From Octopus sinensis (lineage: Eukaryota): a stretch of 64,000 nucleotides of DNA. The stretch spans positions 32,426,001 to 32,490,000 of the forward strand of contig NC_043002.1 of the NCBI RefSeq assembly GCF_006345805.1. Reading direction: 5' to 3'. Positions within the stretch are counted from its first letter, which is position 1; each line of letters starts with the position of its first letter. Positions 1 through 13,300 of this stretch are shown piece by piece. A program made the translations under genes and the position numbers. Under the pieces are notes generated by a model. That model made no database searches and had not been told where the DNA came from. It saw only the letters and a list, made by a program, of their open reading frames with translations.

Positions 1-1320
1 TAAATATAGCTGTCTGGAAATAGAACTTCTCTGCAAGGCAAAAATCATGAACTCCAAAGGAGTAACAAAGACATATCGGAATGACGGGCGACTCGTTCAA
101 GGAAAGATACACACAAATTCTGGCGTCATTCAGGGACAAAATAAAGGACTTGCCACATCCTTATCCAATATGATATGTGAATTGAAAAACAGGATGAGTA
201 AGCAACCCCCAGATAACATGGAGTATTCTTGCTAGAACTAGAAAATATAAGAGACGTGGTACGAAATGTGAACTTTGTATTACTGAAAAGCTACATATCA
301 TCCAGTCTAAAGGTAACATCTGAAACATTATGAGTGAAACCTTCTCGCCTTACATTCACAAACAATATTTTACATTCCAGCATTTCAATAAGGTAGTACG
401 ACACACGCACCCGATCCTACGAAACTAGGTTTTTTTTCCCTAAAAGTGAGAATTAAATATATACATCATATGAACTGCACACATAGAAGACACATGATGA
501 TCTACCTCCATGTACAAACAAACATTACACATACCCAAAGTATTATATATAAACAAAAGCAACTTTCAGAACAATTTTTCTCCCTAAGCCCAAAAGCCAA
601 GGGAGATAATCGTTCAGTGGGACCACTTGGTATCTTATTTTGTTTACGAGATTGTATCTGGAATTCCCATGATTTTTCATGTTTTAATCCAAAATGGAAA
701 CGAACACGAATTCCTCCATGCCACCGGCTTCAAAAATAAAGTATTTAAGTATTTTCTTAACTTGGAAACAATGGTAGCCTTAATACACAAATAAATAACT
801 TGTATTCATCAATGTATGTTGCGCATTCACTCTCATTGTTCAAAATTTACACACACACACACACACACACACACACACACCACATATATATATATTATAT
901 ATATATATATATATATATATTAACAATATTTAAGAAACTGATGGTTGACAAATCTATACTTGGGCGCCTATTAATTACACGAAAATGAGAAGTGATAAAA
1001 AAAAATACTCACAACGTGCCAATTCTCGTGTATGTGTTCGAAGAAGGCTGAAATAAGATGTAAAATATTAAACAATCATTTTAAGTGATGTTAGTTTAAA
1101 AACATTGTATTAACATACTGTTTTATTTAATTGCTGATGTGTAGAACTCTACTGCGATTAAGATGAGTTTGAGTGGCACACACTCGCGGAAACGCTCACA
1201 GAAACACATCCGCAAACTCGTATCTATTCATCCTTCCATTTATAAGTCTATATCCTTCTATGTATCAATCTGCATATCTATCTATATATCTATATCCATA
1301 TATATATCTCTCTCTCTCTC
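1..1320. repeat. Segmental duplicate (copy A) of 6412-7800, containing the 35-nt ITAM exon
   Basis: Near-identical sequence; track ORFs 47..235/6458..6646 and 446..739/6857..7150 are duplicates. Confidence 0.97.
1013..1047 (-). CDS. Cytoplasmic exon, ITAM module A second half ([11 protein letters not shown]), 35 nt, phase 0 to 2
   Basis: Acceptor cttatttcag, donor gtgagta; paralog of exon 7431-7465. Confidence 0.8.
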
Positions 1321-10300: not shown

Positions 10301-13300
10301 AAGTATATATATATATATATATATATATATATATATATATATCAAATAATTAAGGTGTCTTGACGAAATATAGAACCAAAAAGGAAAAATTCAACTGTCA
10401 CTGATATTGACAGAAGGTGAGCGTAGCACATACATTGCTAGAGAAAAACATAGCACACAAGCATGGCACACATCTCTAGACTGAGAGGGACGTTAACCGC
10501 CCCACAGTGAATGAATATAATGTATTGCGTATCGGCAGTAATAGTCCCTCGCTGAACCTAAGCCAATTTCTACCTGCCAGAATAAACCAAAAGAATCAAT
10601 GGTTCGACTATGTGCGATGGAGTAGTACTACTGCTGAGCTTTAATTTCAAGCTCATTTTGGCTCGCCAATATAGTAATCTCGCTCGCTTTGGGTGTTAAA
10701 CTCCCATGTCAGTACATAGACTTGTGCTATGTCTGTGAAGATAAGGGTCTTCATACATACATACATACATATATATATATATATATATATATATATATAT
10801 ATAATATATATATATATATATATATATATATATATATATATACATACATGTATGTATACATATATATGCGTGTGTGTGTGGTAATAGTATCAACACCATA
10901 TTACACTGCATAAACCAAAGACACATTTCGGTAAATTATTGGAAGGGTGAAAGAAACAGTCGGTGTTGGGATCTTTTTGATTATAAATTTACATGGTTCT
11001 TATTTTATCAAAACTCCGGAAATACGAAGGACAAAGCTAACCACGACGGAATTTGAGCTCACATCGTAAAGCCAGAATAAAATAGGCGAAGCATTTTGTC
11101 CACGAGAGAGCGATTCTACCAGTTTAATGCATTCGCAAGAAAATTTGATAATTGCTTCAAGAACAGCAACTTCAAAGAAGAATGTAAGTCGTCACATTGA
11201 CCCTAGTGCTCAATTAGCACTTATTTTATCGGAACTGGAATAATGAAAACAAAGTCAGTTTCATTGAAATTTGAACTCACAGGGTAACGCTATAAGAATG
11301 CTGCTAGCATTTCTGCCATCACACTGCCTTCACAAGAAAATTTAATTAGGTCGGCATAACAGTGAAAAATATTTAGTTACAGAATAATAAGCTTACACTT
11401 AGTTCAATTTCAACGTACTCTCCGATATCTTTTTCTATATCGTTCCTCTCTACCTTTGTACGTCGACTGCTTTCTGCACGAATTCTATCTACTTGTACGC
11501 TGTAAAATATAAAATATTGATATGAATAAGTATTTTTAAATATTTAATATCTATCACTGTATGTTATGTGTGTGTATGTGTGTGTGTTTGTGTGTGCGCG
11601 CGCCATCTAGTGCGAACACACTATCTTTAAGATAACATATCTTAAATTCGTTTGATGCCATTCACTCGTACACAATAGTGTATATGCGTAAGTATACGTT
11701 TGGTATGCAGGTGGGAAGAATGGTGGTAAGACACGCATTATGAACAACGGAAAACATAGGAAAATATCGGGAAACGGGGACGTAAATACATCTACATCGA
11801 TTGTCAAGCAATGGTGGGGAGACAAACACAGACATGCAAGAACACACACACACGCACACACACACACACACACACACACACACACACACACACACACACA
11901 CATATATATATATACATAGAACGAGCTTCTTTCGGTTCTATCGGTCTCTATTACTGAACCACTAAGACACGGGGACGTAAGCACACCAACATCGGTTGTC
12001 AGGCCTGGACAAACACAGGCATACAGACACATGCACACGCAAGTGAGGTGGCCGAGAGGCTGGCGGCTCTAAACCGGATCTGGTCTCGAAGGGCGCTATC
12101 CCTGAAAGGGAAGGCGGAGGTGGTGCAGATCTATATTGCATCTGTTATCACCTACCGTCTGACCGTTGTTCCTTGATCTGATTAATGGCTAAGCAAGTTG
12201 GAACACCTTCTCTTCTGCTTTTTGTGGAGGGGAGAAAAACCACATATATTAGCTCTAGAATTGCCATAGTTATCCACTTTCCTCTCGGTGAGGAATACGG
12301 TCCTGAGGATTAGGTCCGGTTCCTGAGCCATTCGCGGTTTCATCATTCGAAATTTCCCCTGGACACCTGAAGAAGGCTGGAGAGTGTATCAGCCGAAACA
12401 CCGTGTTAACAAAAAACAAGATGAGGATAAATGTCTGTTAAATGTAAATAATGTACTTAATTCCTCATCTCTAAAATATAGTACTGTACCAAGGGAATAT
12501 TTCTTAAGCTCACATGCAATGAGTGCAGTACATATACATATGCATATATATATATTTCTGTGTGTATGTTTACATATATACATACACACAATTACACACA
12601 CACACTTATATATATATATATATATATATATATATATATATATATGTATATAAATAAATATATATATATATATATAAATATTTATTTTATTTTTTATTTT
12701 ATTTATTTTATCTAGTTTCAGCTCACGAGGTGTGGCCATGCTGGGGCACCGCCATTTATATATATATATATATATATATATATATATTATATATATATAT
12801 ATATATATATATATATATTATATATATATATATATATATACATACATATATATATATATATATATATATATATATATGTGTGTGTGTATATGTGTGTATA
12901 CAGTATGAGTATTGATGCATCATTTCACATGCACATTACCAAATTCGCAGCAAAATGCAGACAAATGGCAGGATGGATACTAAGAAGACCGAGTACAAGT
13001 GATCAAGAAATCATGTTGTGCTCAGCTGCCTAAACTACTGCTCTCAGCTGTGGTCAACACATAGTGTCAAGCTAAGAACAGAGCTTCAAGCAATCCATCG
13101 TCACTACACAAAAAAGTTTGCTACAGTCCAACAGATGAACAACAGGGAGAAGCTGAAAGAACTACGTCTGTACTCCCACGTGAGAGATATGTAATACTTT
13201 ACATCTCTTTTACTCTTTTACTCTTTTACTTGTTTCAATATTCCTTAAAGCCCTAGCTAACACCTTGGCGAAAGGTCCATCAGGAATCGTCTAACCGTGT

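Follow-up and report, generated by a model that had tools for sequence, protein, structure and literature searches.

Offset exon duplication as the probable origin of a second paired-tyrosine motif in the tail of a putative octopus transmembrane mucin

How might the intracellular tail of a predicted octopus mucin come to carry two tyrosine pairs, each divided between two exons, and what could such pairs do? The question arises in a 64,000-nucleotide stretch of the Octopus sinensis genome (contig NC_043002.1, positions 32,426,001 to 32,490,000; the window), in which two 103-nt and two 35-nt exons on the minus strand combine into two ITAM-like motifs. The best explanation overall, with a probability of roughly 0.6, joins a history of offset duplication to a signalling role of the paired motifs.

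In the direction of the gene, the tail consists of long exon B (11397..11499, 103 nt, phase 2 to 0), short exon b (7431..7465, 35 nt, phase 0 to 2), long exon A (2193..2295, 103 nt, phase 2 to 0) and short exon a (1013..1047, 35 nt, phase 0 to 2), all on the minus strand and all bounded by AG acceptors and GT donors. The C-terminal GEYVEI of exon B forms the first half of pair 1, and the YTNI of exon b, which is also a YxN site, its second half. Exon A contributes IYVN (YxN) and EYVEI, the first half of pair 2, which is completed by the YTRI of exon a, a recent copy of b. In a frame check, the nine exons that start with the SEA domain, include the transmembrane exon and end with exon a gave 245 codons with no stops, while the other two frames of the transmembrane exon plus the four tail exons contained 5 and 9 stops; both pairs lie in frame downstream of the transmembrane exon (15925-16054). 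The sequence-only reading had proposed a two-exon layout of 103+35 nt, entered and left in phase 2, with an ITAM-like pattern split by an intron (YVEI in the long exon, the second YxxI in the short one) and an NIYVN in the module of exon A. The layout is confirmed by the splice sites and the single open frame, the split pattern holds, and NIYVN is present in exon A. Exons B, b, A and a are, as judged from sequence, confirmed as real exons, and are predicted to form the intracellular tail of an octopus mucin with a SEA domain and a transmembrane helix. No further tail-exon copies were detected within the window by an ungapped scan of both strands. Additional tail exons considered at 12250-12395 and 14461-14660 were rejected, as they contain stops or have no fitting acceptor, and the transmembrane exon is joined directly to B in both gene models described below (P0005 and P0006).

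Upstream of the tail, on the same strand, the transmembrane exon (15925..16054, phase 1 to 2) encodes a basic stop-transfer stretch and the only transmembrane helix, the number found in SEA-domain mucins; it is identical to P0005 at 42/42 residues and to P0006 at 22/42. It is preceded by a 45-nt Thr-rich exon (19834..19878, matching P0006 residues 86-100) and by three SEA-domain exons: exon 3 (23433..23584), whose GSVIV we take to resemble the SEA cleavage site, exon 2 (28294..28355; 16/20 residues identical to P0006) and exon 1 (29777..29850). Thr/Pro-rich exons of the mucin stalk occupy 31893..41029 and include a tandem array of ~1072-bp exon-plus-intron units; two groups of such exons, all of phase 1-1, one at 31.9-41.0 kb and the other at 55.7-59.5 kb, make up a PTS-rich stalk. 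The assignment of a SEA-like fold to exon 3 is read from the model of an Argonauta homologue of the window protein, P0010 (pLDDT 68-85 over the domain). Its best VIA match was a MUC16-like SEA domain (Z 10.0, rmsd 2.8, 98 aligned), and ranks 1-3 and 5 were SEA-bearing, with unrelated ferredoxin folds reaching Z 9.2. Pfam returned no family for exon A, exon B or SEA exon 3, and no SEA match in P0005-P0007 or P0009-P0011; Foldseek gave nothing at E<=0.001, and the ESM Atlas matches, all below 0.9 and including a MUC1 fragment and transmembrane adaptors, serve as leads only. We interpret the gene as encoding a putative octopus transmembrane mucin with a mucin stalk, a SEA-like domain and one transmembrane helix.

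Several other features were observed in the window. The tandem array (32500-40750) comprises eight ~1072-bp units, in seven of which an AG precedes a Thr/Pro-rich exon of 78 nt; the position a further 15 nt upstream is TG, versus AG in the 93-nt sister exon at 32069-32161, and the unit with a donor at 38835 has lost its AG. Also on the minus strand, a mucin exon at 59403-59453 has a GC donor, and a mucin exon copy at 56627-56680 has a broken donor (GG) and is homologous, with its flanks, to 19834-19878. Two decayed exon-like stretches (29963-30055 and 30089-30180, minus strand) contain stops in every frame and comprise a second copy resembling SEA exon 1 and a Cys-rich EGF-like remnant (a weak match); they could be dead exons or indel errors. 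Between 17620 and 18100, perfect 200-nt inverted arms lie 81 nt apart around a largely self-complementary spacer, representing either a fold-back element or an assembly artefact. On the plus strand, 12290-12420 displays a CTGAAGA...CGAAAC arrangement, presumably recalling the hammerhead-type ends of Penelope-like elements; Rfam yielded nothing for it at the gathering threshold and 0 matches over window positions 1-20000. Element-like remnants, recognized by eye in introns at 42100-43300, 45500-49000, 3300-4000 and 60200-61200, are presumably GIY-YIG/Penelope-like, a long plus-strand LINE-like reading frame, and mariner-like.

The relatives of the gene extend this picture beyond the window. A query with exon A recovered one protein among 2 candidates, the O. 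vulgaris 'mucin-4-like' model P0005 (CAI9724672.1), which uses B, b, A and a in the order of the window and is identical at 178/182 residues over six exons. The O. bimaculoides RefSeq model P0006, which like P0005 is an automated gene model, shares the SEA domain (72-80% identical), the Thr-rich exon, the transmembrane exon and the tail with the window gene, and is its putative orthologue. Exon B is identical to P0005 at 33/34 residues and to P0006 at 17/34, and exon A to P0005 at 33/34; the counterpart of the motif in exon b is YTKI in P0005 and YMTM in P0006. P0005 carries a third long exon, A', after exon a and beyond the window edge, which bears out the expectation that more modules lie to the left of the window. 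The paralogues P0007 and P0011, whose tails are identical to each other at 52/57 residues, have one long-exon-like unit and no pair, so that the number of units varies within the family. A HMMER search of 1.84 billion representatives retrieved 5 proteins, 3 of them named octopod sequences and none named as squid or cuttlefish. P0005 is further annotated with vWD, C8-3_MUC4 and EGF domains plus a SEA-like part, NIDO and AMOP not being listed; the vWD, C8-3_MUC4 and EGF domains did not map within the window, and their placement upstream of the tail, as predicted by this one automated model, is tentative. At ~843-1294 the model takes the mucin exons in a frame rich in His/Asn/Asp, not in the Thr/Pro-rich frame, and it leaves out SEA exons 1-2, both probably through annotation error. 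A 'mucin-4-like' protein is reported from octopus skin mucus (PMC11431876).

Both tyrosine pairs have the form YVEI-x8-YT(N/R)I, and in each the spacer is interrupted by the intron three residues past the first YxxI. The pattern YxxI-x8-YxxI arose in 0.14% and 0.31% of 200,000 shuffles of the 45-46-residue modules, and the broader pattern YxxI/L-x(6-8)-YxxI/L matched twice in the window tail, each time with a spacer of 8, and likewise twice in P0005. The classical ITAM consensus, as given in passages of PMC4536121, has D/E/N-x-x-Y and a 7-residue spacer. The octopus pairs differ from this form, with a spacer of 8 and I or F at -3; acidic residues do occur near the first tyrosine (E at -1, D at -4). 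Moreover, the pairs are not conserved in P0006, in which junction 1 reads YDEI-x8-YMTM and junction 2 has YEEV without a partner tyrosine. The label "ITAM" of the sequence-only reading stands as a match to a pattern, and is weakened by a homologue with no strict ITAM at either junction. P0006 does possess a strict YEEI-x7-YMNI at residues 242-258, wholly within its third long exon, where the window exons have non-tyrosine residues; by its sequence, this is a second, independent route to the paired pattern.

The tyrosines could also be independent single-site motifs rather than paired ITAMs, their 8-residue spacing following only from the exon lengths; we consider this the strongest of the alternatives, although an unlikely one. 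YEEI, YVEI and YDEI would presumably be Src-family SH2 sites, YxxM (in the homologue) a PI3K site and YxN a Grb2 site, and YTRI may be taken as a YxxPhi endocytosis signal like the YTRF of the transferrin receptor. Consistent with such individual use, the set of tyrosines varies from copy to copy and from one species to another: additional YDEI/YEEI motifs occur in P0006 near the starts of the long exons, its short exon 1 has YMTM, and still other tyrosines occur in P0007. A precedent is the SEA mucin MUC1, in which, according to passages of PMC5039420, individual tyrosines of the tail serve in Grb2 binding and in internalisation. Against this reading, both window pairs fit YxxI-x8-YxxI exactly, the replacements in exon a spare its Y and I, and the separate strict pair of P0006 lies in its third long exon.

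The origin of the second pair is recorded in the surrounding DNA. Positions 1-1295 are ~98.5% identical to 6412-7713, a match that takes in the short exon together with the intron sequence on either side; apart from microsatellites, the intron sequence differs at 18 of 1185 bases. The right end of the second copy of this recent tandem block occupies 1..1325 and runs off the window edge, the breakpoint falling at a (TA)n(TC)n tract near 1296-1325, and the first copy of the inferred ~6.4-kb unit (exon b, the intron, exon A and part of the next intron) occupies 1326..7779, at an offset of 6411. Only the right ~1.3 kb of the unit can be compared within the window, and its extent to exon A is inferred from the exon order of P0005 and from the identity of A and A' (25-26/34 residues, versus 11-14/34 between these exons and their P0006 counterparts, or 12-14/34 for A' by itself). 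Long exons B and A, on the other hand, are an old pair, with flanks 69-81% identical: the region around A (1771..2354) is homologous to 11012-11558 around B at 68.6% over 593 nt, a dispersed repeat accounting for part of this intron match. Given the near-identity around the short exons and the age of the long pair, the recent unit was short+long (35+103). A tail built by duplication with a 46-codon period, as first suggested, is thereby supported, and the period recurs in P0006; the proposal that the newest copy is a 103+35 ITAM cassette is not borne out, the block being short+long and offset from the ITAM.

We propose that the older tail was ordered B - b - A - c - C, c being a Tyr-less short exon and C a long one, and that O. 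bimaculoides has kept this order. Within the O. vulgaris group, TC microsatellites located in two homologous introns would then have mediated an unequal crossing-over that duplicated the ~6.4-kb, phase 0-0 unit of b+A and gave B-b-A-a-A'-c. Residues 1516-1527 of P0005, after A', are best matched, among 1568 positions, to the Tyr-less short exon of P0006 (6/12, shuffle p=1.6e-4). A tyrosine-bearing short exon would thus have been set behind the lone YVEI of exon A, creating the second YxxI-x8-YxxI; since the copied unit comprises the second half of one pair and the first half of the next, the new pair would be born at the junction. After the duplication, the exons would have diverged faster than the introns while keeping their tyrosines. 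That an offset b+A duplication from the order B-b-A-c-C made the second pair appears quite likely, with a history that rests on protein models to the left of the window and on the putative orthology of P0006.

The rates of change bear on how the copies have been maintained. Exons a and b differ at 4/35 bases, versus 18/1185 in their flanks (Fisher p=0.003; p=0.009 with local flanks only); all four differences are replacements (dS 0), for which alone the chance is 28%. Long exons B and A are identical at 59/103 bases (57%), versus 71/89 (about 80%) in ungapped flanks (p=0.001), a flank identity that may be inflated by AT-richness and adjoining splice sites. Their dN is 0.68 and their dS 0.42, the latter from only 21 synonymous sites, and differences by codon position number 17/16/10 (positions 1+2 versus 3, p=0.05). 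From A to A' at least 10 changes in 102 bases have accrued, far above 1.5%, if A' lies within the recent block. In the mucin tandem exons, used as a control, 13/468 differences versus 217/5396 in introns give no exon excess. Given the exon excess in the tail and its absence from this control, the tail exons are better regarded as diversifying or escaping homogenisation than as conserved.

Within the long exons, the five residues EYVEI form an island of identity between B and A (permutation p=0.012 by residue, 0.055 by base), and the exon ends retain Tyr with an aliphatic residue at +3 (Y-x-E-I/V) in 7/8 sequences, which are not independent of one another; the island could instead be a short conversion tract. 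Equal length and EYVEI had originally been read as purifying selection. The Y-x-E-I core is indeed kept, but the whole exons diverge more than the flanking introns, and the two features are therefore insufficient for that conclusion. The same contrast counts against a history in which purifying selection preserved ITAM units copied as complete 103+35 cassettes, the near-identity around the short exons being due to later gene conversion. Such a history could accommodate the old B/A duplication, which may well have been long+short, and the DNA of EYVEI, identical at 14/15 bases with one synonymous change. Conversion of the short exon alone, however, does not explain the likeness of A' and A or the Tyr-less c that follows A' in P0005, and we regard the cassette history as quite improbable. 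Finally, it is very unlikely that the distal copies are unused (unspliced, truncated or decaying), their fast change reflecting lost function or an assembly artefact: decayed exon copies do occur upstream in the gene (29963-30055, 30089-30180, 56627-56680) and a divergence of 1.5% is low enough to consider an allelic mis-join, but frame, length and splice sites are intact in all four exons, a loss of function predicts intron-like rates rather than higher ones, and a second, non-identical sequence (P0005) has the identical exon order, its use of the same exons with differences at 4/182 residues making an assembly-specific mis-join unlikely.

In the cell, the second pair would serve as a putative signalling site. 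Engagement or shedding of the ectodomain may lead a Src-family kinase to phosphorylate the tail tyrosines, upon which each pair would become a docking site for a tandem-SH2 Syk-family kinase and the YxN sites would recruit Grb2; docking would drive ERK-type signalling, and an extra pair would raise the signal gain. Skips of 103+35 or 35+103 nt both preserve the frame; the signal could be tuned by leaving out such 138-nt units during splicing, the isoforms that lack them being hypothetical. Src/Syk/Grb2 signalling through the paired motifs, with gain set by pair number, has in our estimate a little under an even chance, by analogy with known receptors. In passages of PMC6994640, co-precipitation with CgSyk and activation of ERK are described for CgIgR, an ITAM receptor of the oyster, and molluscan Syk is summarised in part of PMC13344425. 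A more far-reaching version, in which the mucin is a Syk-coupled sensor whose ITAM number is evolvable through microsatellite-primed offset duplications, diversifying selection and 138-nt skipping, seems rather improbable as a whole. If true, selection would retune residues around the tyrosines, which would be unusual for an intracellular tail and perhaps pathogen-driven, and the ITAM number per cell would be set by 138-nt skipping.

Comparison with known systems indicates which parts of this arrangement are familiar. As in the octopus, the ITAM is encoded over two exons in the vertebrate ITAM adaptors (TCR-zeta, FcR-gamma, CD3, DAP12) and in ITAM-bearing CEACAMs, and passages of PMC4536121 describe changes of ITAM number by exon gain, with three in TCR-zeta and a second in Xenopus FcR-gamma via an extra exon. 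The CEACAM split has an intron of phase 0 (PMC2110893, in part), the same phase as in the octopus tail, whereas the vertebrate boundary cuts the first YxxL (passages of PMC4536121 and PMC2110893) and the octopus boundary lies in the spacer. No sequence homology of the octopus tail to vertebrate ITAM proteins was found, and the different exon boundary points to a parallel, independent origin. The octopus case also differs from the vertebrate two-exon ITAMs in its mucin host and in a new motif at the junction of an offset duplication. Invertebrate ITAM receptors have Ig or EGF ectodomains, as opposed to mucin/SEA in the octopus. In Drosophila, Draper, Src42A and Shark form an invertebrate ITAM receptor pathway. 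The oyster CgIgR-CgSyk system (passages of PMC6994640) combines an ITAM-like receptor tail with a Syk pathway demonstrated in a mollusc, and in Hydractinia the Alr1A motif is contained in a single exon (10.1101/2022.03.25.485889, in part), unlike the intron-split octopus pairs.

Among the mucins, MUC1 and MUC16 share with the octopus protein a PTS-rich stalk and probably a membrane-proximal SEA-like fold (for the octopus, from the Argonauta homologue model), and a tyrosine-rich tail with YxN is common to the octopus mucin and SEA-domain mucins. MUC4 is without SEA in passages of PMC5039420, whereas the octopus gene has a SEA-like part; its NIDO-AMOP-vWD-EGF layout also differs from that of P0005, in which vWD, C8-3_MUC4 and EGF are listed and NIDO and AMOP are not. 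Passages on the MUC1, MUC4 and MUC16 tails describe no paired ITAM. The title of PMC1552070 names a mucin domain that several exons encode. Among the mainly open-access papers searched, none dealt with this gene or with ITAM receptors of cephalopods. In vertebrates, both the two-exon ITAM and the gain of ITAMs through added exons are already known.

The locus would represent a recent and testable instance in which exon duplication brought two halves together into a new paired-tyrosine motif; natural comparisons are at hand in a one-unit paralogue and a relative without the second pair. It would also provide cephalopods with a candidate for a Syk-coupled receptor, and one from the unexpected class of the mucins.
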